Origin: a phage
DNA: 46,713 nucleotides
Sequence record: PZ379183.1
Strand: one strand, 5' to 3'
Shown: positions 2,770 through 46,713 of the stretch, in pieces
Layout: each line of letters opens with the position of its first letter
Position numbering within the stretch: position 1 is the first letter of the stretch
Notes under the pieces: generated by a model
Told to the model about the DNA's origin: nothing
Seen by the model: only the letters and a program-made list of their open reading frames with translations
Database searches by the model: none
Translations under genes and position numbers: made by a program

Positions 2770-2904
2770 ATGCATACTGGGTTAGTGATGGGTGAAGTTC
2801 TGGTTGAAGCATTGCCATGGTTACTCTGGTCATTGGGCTTCATGATTATTTACATGATTTCAGCAGCCGTAGATGACGCTAAAAGCGATCCTAACGAACA
2901 ATAA
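2770..2904 (+). CDS. small hydrophobic (membrane) protein
   Basis: Internal ATG of ORF 2704..2904 with GGATAGAGAA RBS; translation dominated by one hydrophobic stretch. Confidence 0.3.
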   Translation: MHTGLVMGEVLVEALPWLLWSLGFMIIYMISAAVDDAKSDPNEQ

Positions 2905-2922
2905 TTTAAAAGAGGTGATTAC

Positions 2923-3084
2923 ATGATTAAGATCGTATTCATTGGTGAGGATGATTATATGGCTTGTTTGAAGCATGGTGACGTATTCTATGCAGAGCCT
3001 AGCGAAGATGGCAATGGGTACTTCATTAAAAACAAGCACGATGAGGAGCTTTACATAGCAAACCACGAGGCTCTTGTTTACTAA
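2923..3084 (+). CDS. hypothetical small protein (53 aa)
   Basis: GAGGTG RBS then ATG; stop overlaps next ATG. Confidence 0.35.
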   Translation: MIKIVFIGEDDYMACLKHGDVFYAEPSEDGNGYFIKNKHDEELYIANHEALVY

Positions 3085-3224
3085 TGGATAACTACGAAAC
3101 ACCAAGCCAGTGGGCTAAACGGATGATGGATGAGGCTAAGACTGGCGAGGTTGCCATGATGTACTTCGAGCTAATGAATCTATGGAAAGAGCGTGAAGAT
3201 AAAATGGATAGCACGAATTGCTAA
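3084..3224 (+). CDS. hypothetical small protein ending in -DSTNC
   Basis: Frame checked manually; last codons are encoded by the TAGCACGAATTGCTAA motif itself. Confidence 0.35.
   Translation: MDNYETPSQWAKRMMDEAKTGEVAMMYFELMNLWKEREDKMDSTNC
3209..3224 (+). promoter_or_regulatory. TAGCAC-N5-GCTAA motif copy
   Basis: Exact consensus copy, followed by CCATATAAT and CATCAAACAACGAAGAG leader before ATG 3284. Confidence 0.5.
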
Positions 3225-3421: not shown

Positions 3422-3657
3422 TGTTCGGATTAAACGACGCATACTTTAACGCAGTCAAGCGCCAGGCTGATAAGCTGAATGAAGAGTACGGCAAACTTGG
3501 CGCAAAGAAGAAAGATGATAAGGTAGTGGCAGCGCTGATTACTCAAGTGTGGGGGCCGGTTTCGACACTAATTGCTCGAGACAAATTTGTGTGGATTGCT
3601 GGTTATAGAAAATGTCGCGTAGGCCATGATCAGAATGGGAATAGCCTTTATGAATAA
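3421..3657 (+). CDS. hypothetical protein (78 aa)
   Basis: ORF with GGAGGATGATGAATAATG context. Confidence 0.45.
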   Translation: MFGLNDAYFNAVKRQADKLNEEYGKLGAKKKDDKVVAALITQVWGPVSTLIARDKFVWIAGYRKCRVGHDQNGNSLYE

Positions 3658-3841
3658 TAAAGAAATCAATCACAAGCATCGCTACGTTTACGTGTTCACA
3701 TCAAATATTAACGATTTTGACATTAAAGCGCTAAACGACAAGTACCATGAGTCAACAAAACAAAGTCTATTTGTTGGTGAAAGCTGTTCATTCTACGAGT
3801 GCAAAGATTGTGGCAAGATGCTTATAACTGAGGAGTTTTGA
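3650..3841 (+). CDS. hypothetical small protein with C-x-x-C pair
   Basis: Internal ATG of ORF 3626..3841 overlapping upstream stop; CKDCGK motif near C-terminus. Confidence 0.4.
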   Translation: MNNKEINHKHRYVYVFTSNINDFDIKALNDKYHESTKQSLFVGESCSFYECKDCGKMLITEEF

Positions 3842-5364: not shown

Positions 5365-5380
5365 TAGTTTGGAGAGTAGG

Positions 5381-6952
5381 ATGAGTGAAACATTAGTATG
5401 GGAAGAAATGACGCCAGCAGAAAAGATGGCAGTTAAGGCTATATCCACTCATAGTTTCGAGGGATTCTTGCGGGTGTGGTTCCAACTTACCCAGGGCGAG
5501 CGATACATCCCTAACTGGCATCACAAATACCTGTGTCGAATCATTGACGAGATTATCGCTGGTGAGCGCAAGGACACAATCATTAACATCGCTCCAGGAA
5601 GTGGAAAAACAGAGATAGCTTCAATTCACTTCCCGGCCTACTCGATGGTTAAGCTAAAGAAGGTCAGGAACCTGAACATCTCGTTTGCCGACTCACTTGT
5701 TAAGCGTAACTCCAAGCGAGTTCGGGACCTGATTAAGTCTGTTGAGTTCCAGGAGTTATTCCCATGCAAGTTCGGTACGTGCAAGGATGATGAGCTTCAA
5801 GTTCTGGATGAGTCTGGTAAGGTTCGGTTTGAGTCAATATCTAAGGCTGCTGGAGGCCAAATAACCGGCGCAAGGGGTGGATATATAACGGATTCATATA
5901 GCGGAGCGGTTCTGTTAGATGATTTTGACAAACCAGCCGACATGCTTTCTGCTGTTTTTCGCGCTAACAATCACGTGATGCTAAAGAATACAATACGCTC
6001 TCGTAGGGCGAGCTCCGTAAAAGGAAAGGCGACGCCGATTATCTCTATCCAACAGCGCCTTCATGTGAATGATAGTACGTGGTTCATGATGAATGGCGGT
6101 ATGGGTATTAGCTTCGACTTGATTAAGATACCGGCGCTCGTAACTGAGGATTACGTCGACACGCTTCCTGACTGGATTAAGCGGCAATTCATTGATGACG
6201 TTCTATCAAGCGAATATATTGAGCGTGATGGTGTTAGGTACTATAGCTATTTCCCTGGCAAGGAATCTGTTCACGACCTAGTTGCAATGTGGGATTCTGA
6301 TAGCTATACATTCCTTAGCCAGTATCAGCAAGAACCAGTAGCACTTGGCGGCAACCTGATTAACGTAGACTGGCTTCAACGCATTAGCGACACTCTGCGA
6401 CCGCCAGCTAAGTACGATTACAGGTTTATGGTCCTTGATACTGCGATGACAACCAAAAGTTACAGCGACTTTAGCGTCATGCAGCTATGGGGTTATAAGG
6501 ATGGGAAGATTTATCTGCTTGACCAGCGGCGCGGTAAATTTGAAGCTCCTGAGCTCGAGGCTGAGTTATTGGATTTCGAGAAGATGGCTAGGGCATCCAA
6601 TCAGATAGATGGCATCCTTCGTAAAATCATCATCGAGAAGAAAGCCTCTGGTATTGGCCTGATTCAATCAGCCGGAAGGGTTATGCGAACGCCTATCGAG
6701 CCGTACGTTCCGGATAACGATAAGCTGACTCGCGTAATGAGTGCATTGCCGCAGATTAAAGCTGGTAACGTAATCCTTCCGGAGTCTGCTACTTGGCTTA
6801 ATGGCTTGCTAACGGAGATTGCGGCATTCACGGCAGATGATTCACATGTTCACGATGACCAGATAGACTGTTTGACAATGGCCGTAAACCTGGTACTGAA
6901 CATTGCAGAAGACCCTAAATCGAGGATGATGCGCCTCGCTGGCATCAAATAG
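5381..6952 (+). CDS. terminase large subunit
   Basis: ORF track 5369..6952; start at ATG after GGAGAG; Walker A-like GSGKTE near the N-terminus and C-terminal acidic nuclease-like region; position before portal. Confidence 0.85.
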   Translation: MSETLVWEEMTPAEKMAVKAISTHSFEGFLRVWFQLTQGERYIPNWHHKYLCRIIDEIIAGERKDTIINIAPGSGKTEIASIHFPAYSMVKLKKVRNLNISFADSLVKRNSKRVRDLIKSVEFQELFPCKFGTCKDDELQVLDESGKVRFESISKAAGGQITGARGGYITDSYSGAVLLDDFDKPADMLSAVFRANNHVMLKNTIRSRRASSVKGKATPIISIQQRLHVNDSTWFMMNGGMGISFDLIKIPALVTEDYVDTLPDWIKRQFIDDVLSSEYIERDGVRYYSYFPGKESVHDLVAMWDSDSYTFLSQYQQEPVALGGNLINVDWLQRISDTLRPPAKYDYRFMVLDTAMTTKSYSDFSVMQLWGYKDGKIYLLDQRRGKFEAPELEAELLDFEKMARASNQIDGILRKIIIEKKASGIGLIQSAGRVMRTPIEPYVPDNDKLTRVMSALPQIKAGNVILPESATWLNGLLTEIAAFTADDSHVHDDQIDCLTMAVNLVLNIAEDPKSRMMRLAGIK

Positions 6953-6965
6953 CACGTTTTGCTAA
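6950..6965 (+). promoter_or_regulatory. TAGCAC-N5-GCTAA motif copy (TAGCACGTTTTGCTAA)
   Basis: The TAG is the terminase stop codon; followed by GGATGGCTTATAGT and ACGAGAGGAG leader. Confidence 0.5.
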
Positions 6966-7021
6966 AGACGTGCCGCCAAGGATGGCTTATAGTTACTTCA
7001 CGCAAACGAGAGGAGTAAAAA

Positions 7022-7375
7022 ATGAAAGCAGTATTTAAAGGGTATAAAAAATATGGTTATTTTGAATTTACCGTTGGTAAGATTTATGACTTATCAAGAA
7101 CGTCTGAAAGTAATAATGAATACGTCAAAGTTAAGGATGATAAAGGCTATGTGGGCGTAATTAATCTTAGTGTTTATGATTTCGAAGTTATAGAGCCTAC
7201 CGATTTTGTCGTTAAAGGTGATAATTTTAAAGTTGAAAAGGCTGGGATTAAATACTTCATCAACAAAGACATAGTAACTAAAGAGGCATTTTATGAAGTC
7301 AGAAGGGAGGTTCGCCAGTTAACACTTAATGGAGTGAAAACATCATCAATCAAGTTCGAAGTAAAATTCGAGTAA
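7022..7375 (+). CDS. hypothetical Lys-rich protein (117 aa), moron-like insertion
   Basis: AT-rich ORF with its own upstream motif and downstream terminator, inserted between terminase and portal. Confidence 0.5.
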   Translation: MKAVFKGYKKYGYFEFTVGKIYDLSRTSESNNEYVKVKDDKGYVGVINLSVYDFEVIEPTDFVVKGDNFKVEKAGIKYFINKDIVTKEAFYEVRREVRQLTLNGVKTSSIKFEVKFE

Positions 7376-7397
7376 CCATAAAAGCTATGCTAAACTA

Positions 7398-7418
7398 AGC
7401 CCCTAAATGGGGCTTTTT
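7398..7418 (+). terminator. rho-independent terminator
   Basis: AGCCCC-TAAAT-GGGGCT hairpin followed by T5. Confidence 0.7.
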
Positions 7419-7433
7419 ATTGGAGCAAATAAA

Positions 7434-8711
7434 ATGGTAAAAGCAGATTCATACGCCACGCAATTTCTTGGTGGCTCCAGTGATGGTAGCGAGATTTACG
7501 GGCACTTTGGCAACACGTATCTTACACCTCCTTTCGCTGATTCACTGTACGCATCAAACTCAATTGTACGCCGCATCGTCGACACCATACCGGAGACAGC
7601 AATCGCCGCAGGTTTCCATATCGATGGTATTGATGACGAAGGTGAATTCTGGTCCAGGTGGGATTACCTGAAGGTTAACGAGTCAATCTCTGACGCATGG
7701 TCATGGGCGAGGTTATTTGGCGGCTCTGCAATTGTGGCTATCGCTAAGGACAATCGTGCGCTAACTAGCCCGGTACGTGAAGGCGCGGAACTTGAATCAC
7801 TTCGCGTTTATGAGCGTAGCCAGGTAAGAGTTCAGACTAAGGAGGAAAACCCTCGCAATGTGCGATTCGGTAAGCCATTAACGTACCGCATCACGCCAGA
7901 AGGTGGCGCCATGTTTTATGATGTGCACTACTCGCGAGTTCACATTATGGATGGCGAGAAGATTCCTAGTTCATTGCGTCGCGGTAATGACGGGTGGGGT
8001 GCTAGCGTTCTGGTTCCTGACCTGCTTGAATCAATCAAGGATTATCAGACGTGTGAGAAACTGGCAACTCAGTTATTGCGCCGCAAGCAGCAGGCGGTGT
8101 GGAAGGCTAAAGGCCTTGCTGAACTGTGTGACGACGCGGAAGGTTTTGGTGCGGCCAGGTTGAGGCTTGCCCAGGTTGATGATAACTCTGGCGTTGGTCG
8201 CGCGATTGGTATCGACGCTGAAGCTGAAGAGTACAGCGTTCTTAACTCGGATATTGGTGGGATTGATGGATTCCTCGATAAGAAGTTCGACAGAATTGTT
8301 GCTCTGAGCGGTATCCATGAAATCATTCTCAAAGGTCGTAACGTTGGCGGGTTATCATCTAGCCAAAACACAGCGCTAGAGACATTCCATAAGTTGATTG
8401 ACCGCAAGCGTAACGAAGAGCTACTTCCAGTTCTTGGGTTCTTAATCCCGTTCGTCACAACCGAGCAAGAATGGTCAGTTGAGTTTAACCCTCTAGCTCA
8501 GGAATCGAAGAAAGACCGCGCTGAAGTACTGAAGAATAACGTTGATTCAATTACTGCTCTTATCACTAACGGCGTGATGGATGCAGACGAAGCACGAGAT
8601 ACCTTGCGCGCATTAGCCCCTGAGGTTAAGATTGGTGAAGGTTCAATTGAGACAGAGGTAACAATCAATGAAACCAGTGAAGACCCGCTGGAAGTACCCG
8701 CAGACAATTGA
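7434..8711 (+). CDS. portal protein
   Basis: ORF track 7407..8711, start moved to ATG after GGAG RBS because 7407 lies in the terminator hairpin; size and position after terminase. Confidence 0.75.
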   Translation: MVKADSYATQFLGGSSDGSEIYGHFGNTYLTPPFADSLYASNSIVRRIVDTIPETAIAAGFHIDGIDDEGEFWSRWDYLKVNESISDAWSWARLFGGSAIVAIAKDNRALTSPVREGAELESLRVYERSQVRVQTKEENPRNVRFGKPLTYRITPEGGAMFYDVHYSRVHIMDGEKIPSSLRRGNDGWGASVLVPDLLESIKDYQTCEKLATQLLRRKQQAVWKAKGLAELCDDAEGFGAARLRLAQVDDNSGVGRAIGIDAEAEEYSVLNSDIGGIDGFLDKKFDRIVALSGIHEIILKGRNVGGLSSSQNTALETFHKLIDRKRNEELLPVLGFLIPFVTTEQEWSVEFNPLAQESKKDRAEVLKNNVDSITALITNGVMDADEARDTLRALAPEVKIGEGSIETEVTINETSEDPLEVPADN

Positions 8712-15360: not shown

Positions 15361-15365
15361 ATTGA

Positions 15366-15382
15366 TAGCACTTTTTGTTAAA
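15366..15382 (+). promoter_or_regulatory. TAGCAC-N5-GCTAA motif copy (variant TAGCACTTTTTGTTAAAG)
   Basis: Followed by TGTATAGT and CATTCATCGAAACGAAA leader before ATG 15442. Confidence 0.5.
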
Positions 15383-15441
15383 GACCAAATCGCGGATTGC
15401 TGTATAGTTCATTCATCGAAACGAAATGAGATATTAGTGAA

Positions 15442-15690
15442 ATGAACAACGTTAAAAACATCATCAAACTTGCTGCTGCTCTTGGTGCTTTCTACCTGGC
15501 AATTCAGATTGTTAACCCAACTGGTGGCGAAACCGCAAACTCTGATGCAATAAAGTATGAACATGAATTTAATAGTGCATACTCGCATTGTGAAAAAGTA
15601 GCTGGCGATAAGACAAACCAGATTCTGCACTATGGTCGTGAAGTGTGCACCGAAGTTGCTCACAACATTGTAAAAAACGAATCAAAGTAA
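15442..15690 (+). CDS. small secreted/periplasmic protein (signal peptide, 2 Cys)
   Basis: N-terminal MNNVKNIIKLAAALGAFYLAIQIV hydrophobic signal-like segment; own motif-type promoter; inserted between major tail and chaperone genes. Confidence 0.45.
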   Translation: MNNVKNIIKLAAALGAFYLAIQIVNPTGGETANSDAIKYEHEFNSAYSHCEKVAGDKTNQILHYGREVCTEVAHNIVKNESK

Positions 15691-19404: not shown

Positions 19405-19755
19405 ATGGCATTGCAAACATTTAACTGGTGCTTGAACGTTCTCAACGGTGGATCATTATTTAGTAACAAGAACAACGTTAGAATTGTATCCTTTGGCAAC
19501 GGCTTTGAACAAAGGGGTACTGGAGGATACAGGACAAACAAAAGGACGTATACGGTTAGCTACGTTGGTCGTGAGTGGGAGGCAGTAATGAACTTCTGCT
19601 TTGATCACATTGTAAAACCTTTCGCATGGACTACGCCACAGGGTGAATTAAAGCTGTTTGTTATTCAGCAGGATAGTATCAGCGTCACTCCTAGCACAAA
19701 AGAAGTCCAGACTGTTAGCATGCAATTTACTGAAGTTTTTACTTCAATGAGTTAA
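19405..19755 (+). CDS. minor tail protein (lambda gpM-like, putative)
   Basis: 116-aa ORF directly after tape measure; order M-L-K-I-J as in lambda-like tails. Confidence 0.55.
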   Translation: MALQTFNWCLNVLNGGSLFSNKNNVRIVSFGNGFEQRGTGGYRTNKRTYTVSYVGREWEAVMNFCFDHIVKPFAWTTPQGELKLFVIQQDSISVTPSTKEVQTVSMQFTEVFTSMS

Positions 19756-19759
19756 ACTA

Positions 19760-19782
19760 AGGCCCATAGAGGGCCTTTTTTA
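19760..19782 (+). terminator. rho-independent terminator / attenuator
   Basis: AGGCCC-ATAGA-GGGCCT hairpin followed by T6. Confidence 0.7.
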
Positions 19783-19793
19783 TTGGAGAGAAT

Positions 19794-20549
19794 ATGGCAA
19801 GTTTAAAGTTTGAAAACCAGCTTCAATCACTTTTTCCTGGTGAAGTGGTTACGCTTATTGAGGTTGACGGAAGTAAATTCGGGGCAAGGGTTTACAGGTT
19901 TCATGGGGAGAACATCTCATACACGCCTGAAGAAATCATGCAAGCCCAAGCGTCCGGCCAGCCACTACCATCCAAGACAATCACTTTCCGTGGAGAAGAG
20001 TATGGAGCCAGGCCTTTCGGTATTAGCGGCATTAATCTTACTTCTGACGGCAAAGCAAACAAGCTCACGCTAATTTTATCAAACGTAGACCAGGCTGTTT
20101 CCGCGCTAATACGTCAGTATAATGGCATGGTTAAGGCTAAGGTGACAATTTGGGTTACTATCAGGGATAATATCAATGAGGACGGCAGCATTGCAGATGG
20201 TGATTATCGTAAGATGGTTTACTTTATTGAGCGTCCAAAGCAGGTTGACTACAAAACTGCCTCTTTTGAGTTATCTAGCCCAATTGATATGGATGGCATT
20301 TATATTCCAGCGAGGTTAGTCCAGTCAGTATGCTACTTCGCTTCCCGTGGCTGGTATCGTAGTGGTAACGGTTGTGATTATGCCGGGAATCGATACTTTG
20401 ATAAAGACAATAATCCGGTTGATGACCCTGGCCTGGATTTCTGCGCCGGAACTGTTGATGCATGTAAGTTAAGGTTTGGTGAAAACAACCAGCTATCATT
20501 TGGAGGTTGTGCCTCTGCTAGCTTGCAAGCCAAGAATAACCAGAACTAA
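19794..20549 (+). CDS. minor tail protein (lambda gpL-like)
   Basis: C-terminal cysteine cluster (C-x-Y-F...G-C-D-Y...F-C-A-G-T-V-D-A-C) like the Fe-S cysteines of gpL-family proteins; position. Confidence 0.65.
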   Translation: MASLKFENQLQSLFPGEVVTLIEVDGSKFGARVYRFHGENISYTPEEIMQAQASGQPLPSKTITFRGEEYGARPFGISGINLTSDGKANKLTLILSNVDQAVSALIRQYNGMVKAKVTIWVTIRDNINEDGSIADGDYRKMVYFIERPKQVDYKTASFELSSPIDMDGIYIPARLVQSVCYFASRGWYRSGNGCDYAGNRYFDKDNNPVDDPGLDFCAGTVDACKLRFGENNQLSFGGCASASLQAKNNQN

Positions 20550-25375: not shown

Positions 25376-26345
25376 AGTAGAAGTTTGGTATGAATGGTAG
25401 AGCCATTGATATGTTTGTGTCGAATGGGAATTGGGCCCCCGTCTGCGTTGAGTAGTTCCCTATCACAGTGCCTGGAACTGCCCTTACGGCACCACCAGAC
25501 ATGCATATTCCCTTGTACCTTAAGTTGTTATACCCTCCAGTAACTCTTGTTGTAGCGCCGCACCTGAGCAGTGGGAAGAACCCTCCATTTATTGACTGGA
25601 AACCATTGGTTATTTGTATAAAGCCACCAAGCACGAACGGTCGCCTGACGCTTGAAAAAACAATCTGTCCAGAACTATTAGACATTGTGAGTCCTGGGCC
25701 AGCTACTGGAGGGTCATTCCTGAATATCACTAACTGTACGTAAGTACTTGCTGCAACGTCATCTATGCCGCTGTAGTTTATGTTGCGGCACCAAATTGTA
25801 TTACCGTCGCTCTCCAGAGAAACGTTTGGGTTATCCCATTTACCAAATGGAATCCCACTGACTGGTAGTGAGGCGGCGCCGTTAACCTGTATTCCACCAA
25901 CCCATGCCGCAGACATTAACCGCGAATTGCTTGAAATTGCCAAAAAGTCAGTTGAGTTCTCAACCAGTATTCCTGGGCTTGATGAAGACGAGGCTGGGAG
26001 TATTTCAAAGCAATTTCCAGCAAAGTCAATTATACGACCTCTTGCGCCATTGAAGTCACTAAGCGTTATCCTGCCAGTTCCGTCATTTACCTTCTGGAAC
26101 CCGTTCATATAATAAACTTCAGGTACAACATCATAAGCGTCAACGTGCACAGCCTTTGTTGGAAGGCAGAATGCTGTTGAGCCTGGGGACATGGTTAAAC
26201 CAAAATCCCATGATGATGCTGGCGTCGAAAGTCCATTGGTATTTATTGAGCCAGTCACAGCGGGCGCTCTTAATCCTGCCGTTATTTCCATAGGTGGCCT
26301 TCCATCATTAAGGTCAATCAATATTCCTTGAGGCATTATTTCCAC
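25374..26345 (-). CDS. putative receptor-binding / tail fibre-associated protein
   Basis: 323-aa Gly/Ser/Asn/Thr-rich ORF convergent with the J-like gene and co-oriented with the lipoprotein gene; function inferred from context only. Confidence 0.35.
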
Positions 26346-26581
26346 TCCTTAGACCCATGGTCAGCAACAGAGCCACCGTAACCGCCGCCAGCCTTGCTCT
26401 CAATACCAGCGTATCGCACATCAACTTCACCAGACGGTACAACCACACCATTTTCCCATTTAGCCACGCACACGCCGTTTGCTTGCGTTGCACACCATCC
26501 GTCAGGACGCGGAGCAGAAGAACAACCCACCATCATGATTGCTGCTGCTGCGATGATTGAAAGTTTGATTAAGTTAGTCAT
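26336..26581 (-). CDS. small lipoprotein, Cor/Llp-like superinfection-exclusion candidate
   Basis: N-terminal signal peptide with lipobox-like MVGC, mature part ~60 aa with Cys pair; AAGGAATACGAAAATG start with own motif-type promoter. Confidence 0.55.
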
Positions 26582-27439: not shown

Positions 27440-27720
27440 ATGTATGCAATCTCATCCGCGAAAAATGATATACGCAATGTTACGCCAATTTACGCATTGG
27501 TTACATTAAAATATATATATATATCAACCTTTTACTCTTATTATTATTATTATATATATTACTATGTATATCATGTAACTGCTCTTATGGAGTGTTTCGG
27601 TTATAATTTTAATATCATGTGGATTTATACAGTATTGCGCGGTAGCTATACCAATGCACCCTCAGCAATAAATGATATACATGATATACGCACTATTTAC
27701 ATTGAGCTATAGCTTGGCTC
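27440..27720. repeat. AT-rich iteron and microsatellite region
   Basis: TACGC repeated three times at 10-bp spacing (27474-27500), GATATACGCA copies at 27466 and 27681, (AT)n and (TTA)5 tracts; 85-bp segment 27491-27575 duplicated at 46416-46500. Confidence 0.7.
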
Positions 27721-33824: not shown

Positions 33825-34300
33825 TTGCTTAACCCGTGATTTTCGTGAAAGTTGTATTTTCCCTCTGCTTCAATTCTTACTTTATACGCCCGCTCTGGAG
33901 TATCGAAGTTCCCAAGGTGTAGCTGCTTGCCGTCAACCTTGATGTGAGCCTTAAATTTTCCGTGATTTAGCTTTGCCACTCCACAATAACCAGTTGTTGA
34001 TAAAACGCTAAGCTTGCAATTTCTTGAGTTACCTTGATTTGTTGTTACTCTTAGGTTTTCTATTCTGTTATCTAATTTGTTATGGTTTATATGATCAATG
34101 TAGTCGCCATTTTGAAGTTCTCCATTAAACATCTCCCACACAACTCTATGTACATAAGTCCTAAAGCCATTAACAGACACTTTGTAATAGCCAGATGTAG
34201 ATAGTGAGTTGCACTCATCGCCAACCTTAACACGTCTTGCAGTGCTAATCTTCCAATGCAATTTGCCATCTACATAGTAAAAATAATCATGCCAGTTCAT
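33821..34300 (-). CDS. HNH homing endonuclease
   Basis: YVHRVVW...IDHINHNKLDNRIENLR signature; paralogue of 14169..14651. Confidence 0.75.
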   Translation of the reverse strand: MNWHDYFYYVDGKLHWKISTARRVKVGDECNSLSTSGYYKVSVNGFRTYVHRVVWEMFNGELQNGDYIDHINHNKLDNRIENLRVTTNQGNSRNCKLSVLSTTGYCGVAKLNHGKFKAHIKVDGKQLHLGNFDTPERAYKVRIEAEGKYNFHENHGLSK

Positions 34301-34351
34301 TTTCTTCTCTCCAATAAAAAAGGATGTACCGATTATGGCACATCCAATTAT

Positions 34352-40831: not shown

Positions 40832-41005
40832 ATGACTAAATTATACTGCGTTAAAAACAACTCAAAGACACTGCCGTTCACCGAAAACCAGCCGTACAGC
40901 GCAGAGTCTCTAGGTGACGGTTACTACAAAGTTTACGGTGACGATATGACTCACATCCTTGCGCCGATTGATGGCTCTTTGGTGGAATTTATTATCGCAG
41001 ATTAA
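40832..41005 (+). CDS. hypothetical small protein (57 aa)
   Basis: ATG after AGAGGATTCAAAA leader; frame read manually; followed by terminator. Confidence 0.35.
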   Translation: MTKLYCVKNNSKTLPFTENQPYSAESLGDGYYKVYGDDMTHILAPIDGSLVEFIIAD

Positions 41006-46270: not shown

Positions 46271-46415
46271 ATGTGGGGTGAATGAATGGTGGATGGACTA
46301 CCATACAAGTTGATTTTGATTCTTGCTGAGCCAATTTGGATATACACGTTATCGAAGTTATGGTGTGTATATGAGGTGCGCTTCCGAAGAATCATACACG
46401 CCTACCACGCTAGAT

Positions 46416-46500
46416 TACGCAATGGTTACATAATAATATCTATATATATCAACCTTTTACTATATTATTATTATTATTATATATATGTATGTATATGGTG
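46416..46500. repeat. second copy of the 85-bp AT-rich element with (TTA)n microsatellite
   Basis: TACGCAATGGTTACATAATAATATCTATATATATCAACCTTTTACT...(TTA)6...TATATAT is near-identical to 27491-27575. Confidence 0.7.
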
Positions 46501-46713
46501 TAGATTGGTCGTATGGATGGGTCGATAGTTTTTCTATGAAAACTACTAATTTTATCTATATAGATACATATGCATACCCCCGGCGAATCCGCGTAAAATC
46601 TTACACAGGGTAATTACACCAGCTATAGCTGGGCTGAGAGGTCAAAAAGCGTAACCAATGCAGATATAAACACAACATAACACTTGATAACGCGTATATT
46701 CATGATACCATGG

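Follow-up and report, generated by a model that had tools for sequence, protein, structure and literature searches.

The terL–portal junction and its accessory gene

The window, a 46,713-nucleotide stretch of phage DNA, comes from a T1-like coliphage of the Drexlerviridae/Braunvirinae, and its terL–portal region is ~96% identical to those of Escherichia phages ES and AN_ECEAS. Between the gene for the terminase large subunit (terL) and the portal gene lies an accessory gene for a 117-residue protein (Table 1), which matches the PHROG 14592 HMM with E = 3.5e-28, residues 1-117 aligning to profile positions 2-116 of 116. In the mechanical ORF list the portal gene begins at ATG 7407, within a terminator hairpin; its real start is at 7434, as judged by comparison with relatives and by the RBS ATTGGAG.

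Table 1. Features of the terL–portal junction, with the copies of the DR element and two further copies of the gene family (window coordinates unless another record is named).
Feature	Position	Strand	Remark
Terminase large subunit gene (terL), upstream neighbour	5369..6952	+	96% nt identity to terL of Escherichia phage ES
Presence/absence (indel) cassette, approximate extent	6953..7381	+	Alignment with TR3, Rogue1 (empty) and IME542 (HNH endonuclease)
DR direct-repeat element ATAGCACGTTTTGCTAAA	6949..6966	+	Perfect copy of the 18-copy repeat
Short inverted repeat GCCAAGGATGGC, between DR repeat and -10-like hexamer	6975..6986	+	Kept in most element copies
-10-like hexamer TATAGT	6988..6993	+	23 nt after TTGCTA
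RBS GAGGAG of the accessory gene	7010..7015	+	Conserved in the junction alignment
Accessory gene, ATG start, 117 aa, 13.7 kDa, pI 8.9	7022..7375	+	PHROG 14592 member
N-terminal SH3-like small beta-barrel domain, residues 1-58	7022..7195	+	More variable half
Variable-length linker, residues 59-75	7196..7246	+	Indels across the family; low model confidence
C-terminal beta-beta-alpha-beta domain, residues 76-117	7247..7372	+	Conserved; ends in IKFEVKFE
Hairpin and T-run, conserved terL/portal junction terminator	7397..7418	+	T1: annotated terminator at the same junction
Portal RBS ATTGGAG (7419-7425) and true portal start ATG 7434	7419..7436	+	Alignment of relatives
DR copies	670, 1181, 1863, 3208, 6949, 15365, 29050, 32837, 34838, 37334, 39670, 40757	+	
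DR copies	26666, 27414, 38421, 44224, 45004, 46153	-	
Family copies in AugustePiccard/Bas01	MZ501051 piece 3501-3818; record 2803-3165		

The original prediction described this ORF as lower in GC and richer in Lys than its neighbours, and by these measures it is in fact the extreme of the window. Among the 71 window ORFs of at least 50 aa, whose mean GC is 0.431 ± 0.038, it ranks lowest in GC (0.319; z = -2.95) and in GC3 (0.297) and highest in Lys fraction (14.4%). GC in a 300-nt sliding window drops to 0.31 at the ORF versus about 0.47 to either side, and the GC of the flanks is 0.47-0.49. Eight other contexts of the family were examined. At six other Drexlerviridae loci the family ORF has a GC of 0.33-0.38 versus 0.44-0.47 in the flanks, and in two ~140-kb phages it is less markedly AT-rich (0.36-0.40 versus 0.41-0.44). 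Alleles of the Rtp and Jk06 types have a genome-like GC of 0.43-0.44; AT-richness is therefore not a family-wide property.

Upstream of the ORF stands a copy of a direct repeat (DR), ATAGCAC-N3-TTGCTAAA, which occurs 18 times in the window, 10 times in perfect form, compared with 1.7 times in shuffled sequence. Nearly all copies are followed by a TATAAT-like hexamer at fixed spacing, 22-23 nt past TTGCTA; most also have a CATCGAAACGA-type leader and a short hairpin of the GCCAnGGATGGC type, and 15 of the 18 are followed, 73-85 nt downstream, by an RBS and start codon. The copy at the accessory gene, with the terL stop codon TAG (6950-6952) inside the repeat, has the same ORF-associated layout: TATAGT, the conserved leader, the RBS and then the ATG at +73. 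The upstream motif that had been placed at 6950 is thus a perfect DR repeat. No canonical -35 element was found at 17 ± 1 nt from TATAGT, where a sigma-70 scan made no call either. Assignments of the DR element to sigma-54, T4 MotA-box-type or plain sigma-70 promoters were rejected by reasoning from spacing. The element holds a palindrome, TAGCA-N5-TGCTA, centred ~42 nt upstream of the presumed start, a position that, as judged from the spacing, is the geometry of an activator-dependent promoter. A DR motif of the same consensus has been published for TLS, T1, Rtp and Rogue1, and the TLS authors considered a stoperator, an enhancer site or an UP-like element, none of them proven (PMC11447400). 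We regard the DR element as putatively promoter- or enhancer-like.

The genes behind the DR copies of the window encode DUF7421 and DUF7244 proteins, other small early-type products, ERF, a helicase, a PNKP-type phosphatase, a DUF3987 protein and a phage lipoprotein; no canonical virion gene was found behind any of these copies. We infer that the DR element gives the accessory gene independent, non-late expression. The element, -10-like hexamer, leader and RBS would drive the 117-aa ORF directly after the terL stop codon, and transcription would end at the conserved junction terminator, a layout that would give the gene a short transcription unit of its own within the late region.

Several other features of the window were recorded alongside. 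The DR-driven lipoprotein (26336-26581, minus strand; 81 aa) has the lipobox MVGC, matches Pfam PF24052 Phage_lipoprotein (E = 1.8e-39) and is a candidate for receptor blocking or superinfection exclusion. The tail module contains a second cassette-like unit (15365-15690), bounded by the major tail gene on one side and the tail chaperones on the other; it consists of a DR element and an 82-aa ORF (15442-15690, GC 0.40) whose product has an N-terminal hydrophobic segment and no Pfam match. At the corresponding place T1 has a terminator and nothing else. The segments 27482-27577 and 46407-46502 form a 96-nt direct repeat (76% identity) that is extremely AT-rich, with TA/TTA microsatellite-like tracts.

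Downstream of the ORF, the hairpin AAGCCCCTAAATGGGGCTT (7397-7415) with its T-run is one of only four terminator-like sites in 7 kb and, by its sequence, a good candidate for an intrinsic terminator; a scan of 6850-7500 with Rfam returned the terminator hairpin only, below threshold. We aligned the junctions of four carriers (ES, EC3a, Rtp and Jk06), two phages with an empty site (TR3 and Rogue1) and IME542, which has an HNH endonuclease gene there. All aligned junctions, with or without the gene, share the lead-in GATAAACTAG, hairpin, T-run and portal RBS ATTGGAG, and T1 has an annotated terminator within its 54-nt terL-portal gap. The idea that the gene brings its own terminator therefore holds in part: the hairpin and T-run follow and serve the gene, but the same hairpin stands in empty-site phages and in T1. 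Because the junction module is present in all aligned phages, the indel proper amounts to only ~430 bp, comprising the DR element, leader, RBS and ORF, with its left edge inside the terL stop codon. Where the gene is missing (TR3, Rogue1, T1 and many others), just 49-54 nt separate terL from portal; the gene therefore does interrupt a short junction, as had been proposed.

The terL/portal module, TAAACTAAG-hairpin-TTTTTTATTGGAG-ATG, recurs at the empty gpM/gpL junction of the window (19755-19794) and also in T1, and the gpM/gpL site holds a member of the family in other phages. One more copy of the module lies on the minus strand at 34286-34321. These recurring modules match the published terminator-flanked 'transcriptons' of T1-like late regions (PMC11447400), and by their appearance they could be deletion scars or common sites at which cassettes land or are exchanged. 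At gpL/gpK the window has no hairpin; AugustePiccard carries a DR element, ORF, hairpin, T-run and replacement RBS at that junction as a single insertion. Since the terminator is part of the AugustePiccard insertion, a complete unit can travel together.

Distribution and evolution of the family

Gene order in related T1-like phages revealed a presence/absence polymorphism at terL/portal, in line with the original prediction. A junction-spanning search found the cassette in about a quarter of the matching junction records of related Braunvirinae/Rogunavirinae phages (38 of 149), the junction spanning about 1,765-1,822 bp in carriers versus about 1,352-1,364 bp in non-carriers. Across a broader set of 844 phage records with portal homologues, tblastn found the protein in only 29, and the cassette is present in about 5%. 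T1 lacks the gene, which is accordingly far from universal at this position. TR2 and TR3 (87% flank identity) have no cassette and EC3a (75%) has one; Jk06 is a carrier, and Rogue1, phiKP26, C119 and the AHS24 group are not. Presence is therefore discordant with phylogeny. Some host assignments in these records look doubtful: the Pseudomonas phage PsgS01F (PP134917.1), listed together with PQ314493.1 (Escherichia phage UALMA_PCEc3), does not differ from an E. coli phage in length (44,679 bp) or hit statistics, and several MG0656xx 'Campylobacter phage' records contain T1-like coliphage portals (77% aa identity).

Most copies of the family lie between terL and portal, and at least four kinds of site are used in all: terL/portal, gpM/gpL, gpL/gpK and small-gene arrays in ~140-kb phages. 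In the Drexlerviridae, family copies at every site have a perfect DR element with a -10-like hexamer upstream and the same hairpin/RBS module downstream. AugustePiccard/Bas01, a BASEL phage, has two diverged paralogues, one at terL/portal and one at gpL/gpK, a pair that offers a natural system for studying redundancy or specificity. Among the ~140-kb phages, the family member of UPEC06 (Vequintavirinae) adjoins a DNA ligase gene, and that of IMG/VR contig 3300045988_159287 (140.6 kb) sits beside a PolA-like fragment in a small-gene array. The latter copy stands behind a perfect TTGACA-17-TATAAT promoter and is followed directly by a perfect DR element of the Drexlerviridae type. The small-ORF array of this contig (1300-4200) carries an N-domain-like signature, 'G-K-x-Y ... 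DD-x-G ... F-E'. The contig is about as long as three T1-like genomes and may be a chimeric or concatemeric assembly.

When 1.84 billion cluster representatives were searched exhaustively with the family profile, ~26 family clusters at the 50% level were recovered, all of stand-alone proteins that measure 100-140 aa and share the two-part layout; the search gave no fusions and no informative relatives. Four long matches from it were repetitive Ig/lectin proteins and were discarded as compositional.

Sequence change in the gene is rapid and modular. In moderately diverged pairs, dN/dS is 0.34-0.62 for the ORF versus 0.03-0.06 for the adjacent terL and portal segments. The window and ES ORFs differ by six nonsynonymous and no synonymous changes, all within the N-domain. 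Jk06 and Opt-79 have flanks with 96% amino-acid identity, and their ORFs are 39% identical; Sd1 and Opt-79 share an identical C-half and have unrelated N-halves, and ZL19 joins the N-half of Rtp to a Jk06-like C-half. Positions 11, 44, 89 and 111 are multi-state among alleles that are at least 94% identical. Two viable phages have damaged copies: that of phiEB49 is truncated and encodes 68 aa, and that of ACG-M12 has a frameshift after about residue 66. From dN/dS, the allele and domain swaps and the truncations, the gene is real and under selection, fast-evolving, exchanged both as whole alleles and as domains, and losable.

Such a pattern could also be expected of a selfish or decaying passenger, kept because its cassette recombines easily between punctuation sites. 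IME542 provides a parallel case, with an HNH endonuclease gene (NC_048208 piece, 1009-1533) at the identical insertion point, between the terL stop and the junction terminator, and with a DR-like element upstream; the truncated and frameshifted copies and the overall rarity of the gene fit a passenger as well. This reading is nevertheless very improbable: the dN/dS values (0.26-0.62) stay clearly under 1, conservation is strong at both the N- and the C-terminus, the two domains are confidently folded across the ~26 clusters and the protein has no nuclease or recombinase motif.

A predicted two-domain protein and the probable origin of its structural label

No TM segment, signal peptide, lipobox or hydrophobic segment was found in the 117-aa protein, which is predicted to be soluble. 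AlphaFold2 with the family alignment gave a model with a pLDDT of 82.7, in which an SH3-like barrel (residues 1-58) is joined by a low-confidence linker (61-73) to a beta-beta-alpha-beta domain (76-116); the pLDDT of the C-domain modelled alone was 96.3. The N-domain model is a five-stranded barrel that can be superposed on SH3 domains, and for the beta-beta-alpha-beta C-domain no structural neighbour was found. Scans of the protein against Pfam and NCBIfam gave no match and PADLOC defence models none at E <= 1. When profiles of the full family and of the C-domain were run against PDB sequences, only insignificant or designed-protein matches came back, and a BFVD Foldseek search gave only homologues and other uncharacterised small phage proteins. 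Structure prediction and remote homology search, which had been suggested as a check, thus supplied a two-domain fold but nothing specific from the PDB sequence and fold searches. HNH, GIY-YIG and LAGLIDADG nuclease domains were absent in Pfam and NCBIfam, and no similarity to a known anti-defence, defence or exclusion protein emerged from Pfam, NCBIfam, PADLOC or the PDB sequence and fold searches.

Two small phage proteins invite comparison. One is the DUF7244-type beta-barrel protein of ~60 aa, whose member in the window (40832-41005) is DR-driven and small like the accessory protein. A DUF7244 protein reached a Foldseek probability of 1.0; when the family was compared by hhalign with three other small DR-driven proteins of the window, the only match was to the DUF7244 protein, in register with the N-domain but weak (26% probability). 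DUF7244 proteins have no C-terminal domain, whereas the accessory protein has one. Gp54 of phage Bas11 (PDB 9AXB) is the trigger of CapRelSJ46 (PMC11578894). Its 66 aa form one domain of six-stranded topology, unlike the two-domain accessory protein, with which it has no detectable sequence similarity, and it is absent among the PDB sequence matches.

Databases present the family in a different light. RefSeq names Rtp22 (YP_398966), EC3a gp67 (YP_009789313), phiEB49 gp57 and the Jk06 homologue JK_35P 'virion structural protein', and these are true homologues (33-46% identity, same locus); PHROG 14592 is categorised as 'head and packaging'. Taken at face value, these labels would make the accessory protein a minor virion, decoration or assembly protein whose function explains its position in the head block, where most copies of the family lie. 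The homologues are called 'hypothetical' in their original GenBank entries, however, and the earliest structural wording that we found is an unsupported 2005 note on JK06, 'hypothetical minor outer capsid protein', to which the RefSeq/PHROG label seems to trace. No proteomic basis for the label was found in the literature covered, outside which the phiEB49 paper fell. The published virion proteomes of the AHP24 group and of Rogue1 come from phages without the gene and are therefore silent either way on its presence in virions. The cryo-EM model of the T1 virion, with head, cement, portal, neck and tail proteins assigned, contains no such protein (PMC11945409).

The window encodes its actual cement protein elsewhere, as a separate gene (PF22758, 10563-11093), and in Pfam and the PDB the accessory protein matched no known cement or decoration protein by fold or family. 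Phages of the same capsid and tail architecture do not all have the gene (38 of 149 junctions; ~5% of 844 records; T1 without it), and the T1 virion model accounts for head, neck and tail without its product. The damaged copies in viable phages speak against a virion role as well, as do the family members at junctions between tail genes and in the early regions of ~140-kb phages that are unrelated; we consider such a role most improbable. The distribution data contradict the structural label, and the databases appear to mislabel the accessory gene. The comparative evidence instead sides with the original view that this is not a virion-assembly gene: most relatives and T1 lack it, and it is truncated in phages that form plaques.

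A probable mobile accessory cassette and its possible function

Patchy presence, the use of several sites, allele swaps and truncation in viable phages support the earlier suggestion of a moron, and the feature is probably an accessory gene cassette of the moron type, one that is dispensable and moves horizontally. Dispensability for virion production is comparative in nature: most relatives are without the gene, and phiEB49 and ACG-M12 form plaques despite their truncated copies. The cassette would have moved and been exchanged among Drexlerviridae through recombination in the conserved flanking punctuation, on the left the stop codon and DR element and on the right TAAACTAG-hairpin-T6-ATTGGAG; its loss would correspond to a deletion of the motif and the ORF together.

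The product would be a soluble protein of two domains, a variable SH3-like barrel and a conserved beta-beta-alpha-beta domain connected by the linker, and would most likely act by binding another protein inside the infected cell and not in the virion. It might take part in a conflict between phage and host or host defence, a tentative assignment that we favour because of the rapid, modular and allele-swapping evolution of the gene. More speculatively, the family could represent a previously unrecognised, modular counter-defence (or defence-evasion or decoy) protein of enterobacterial phages, in which the fast-evolving SH3-like N-domain would recognise variable host immunity proteins and the invariant C-domain, of a new fold, would provide a common activity. 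Its 'plug-and-play' cassette (DR element, ORF, terminator and replacement RBS) would then hop between transcription-unit boundaries, from Drexlerviridae to unrelated ~140-kb phages.

The same cassette and DR-element evidence would serve equally for a factor of host takeover or superinfection exclusion that stands apart from dedicated defence systems and, for example, inhibits a host housekeeping protein or counters competing phages; the DR-driven genes of the window include a phage lipoprotein of the receptor-blocking kind. We consider this explanation unlikely, although neither of the points against it is decisive: exclusion proteins usually reside in the envelope, whereas this soluble protein has no signal peptide, lipobox or TM segment, and rapid allele turnover and domain swaps are more in keeping with variable targets than with a conserved housekeeping one.

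For the accessory cassette itself, the immediate consequence is a corrected annotation, in that a gene propagated as 'virion structural' or 'minor outer capsid' is optional and mobile. Its 117-aa product is a candidate for accessory-function screens in well-used T1-like and BASEL coliphages, for which natural isogenic-like controls (ES-like versus TR-like phages) and natural domain chimeras exist. The terminator-punctuated boundaries at terL/portal and gpM/gpL appear to be landing or exchange sites for DR-driven cassettes, which could be useful in the engineering of T1-like phages. As a kind of phage gene the cassette is ordinary; it will not surprise a phage genomicist and opens no long-standing question.

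The upstream and downstream signals place the cassette among the known DR repeats and 'transcriptons' of T1-like phages (PMC11447400; Roberts et al. 2004, via that paper). The consensus published there, aaATAGCACnnnTTGnTAAAA, is identical to that found here; as here, the repeats point in the direction of transcription, lie about 76 nt ahead of start codons, and occur in phages whose late region is punctuated by terminators (PMC11447400). The difference is that those papers make no link between the repeats and presence/absence cassettes or the accessory gene.

Lambdoid phages offer the other comparison. The accessory gene resembles their morons in being a single extra gene between genes that are adjacent in relatives, in its promoter-like element, terminator and deviant base composition, and in being patchy and dispensable for virion production. 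The moron concept itself reportedly goes back to Juhala et al. in 2000 and to the phages HK97 and HK022. Unlike the hosts of lambdoid morons, the phage analysed here is virulent, and a lysogenic-conversion rationale therefore does not apply. The cassette also differs in that its upstream element is the T1-family DR motif, whereas lambdoid morons have a plain sigma-70 promoter, in that at terL/portal its terminator pre-exists in the empty alleles, and in that its family uses several landing sites.
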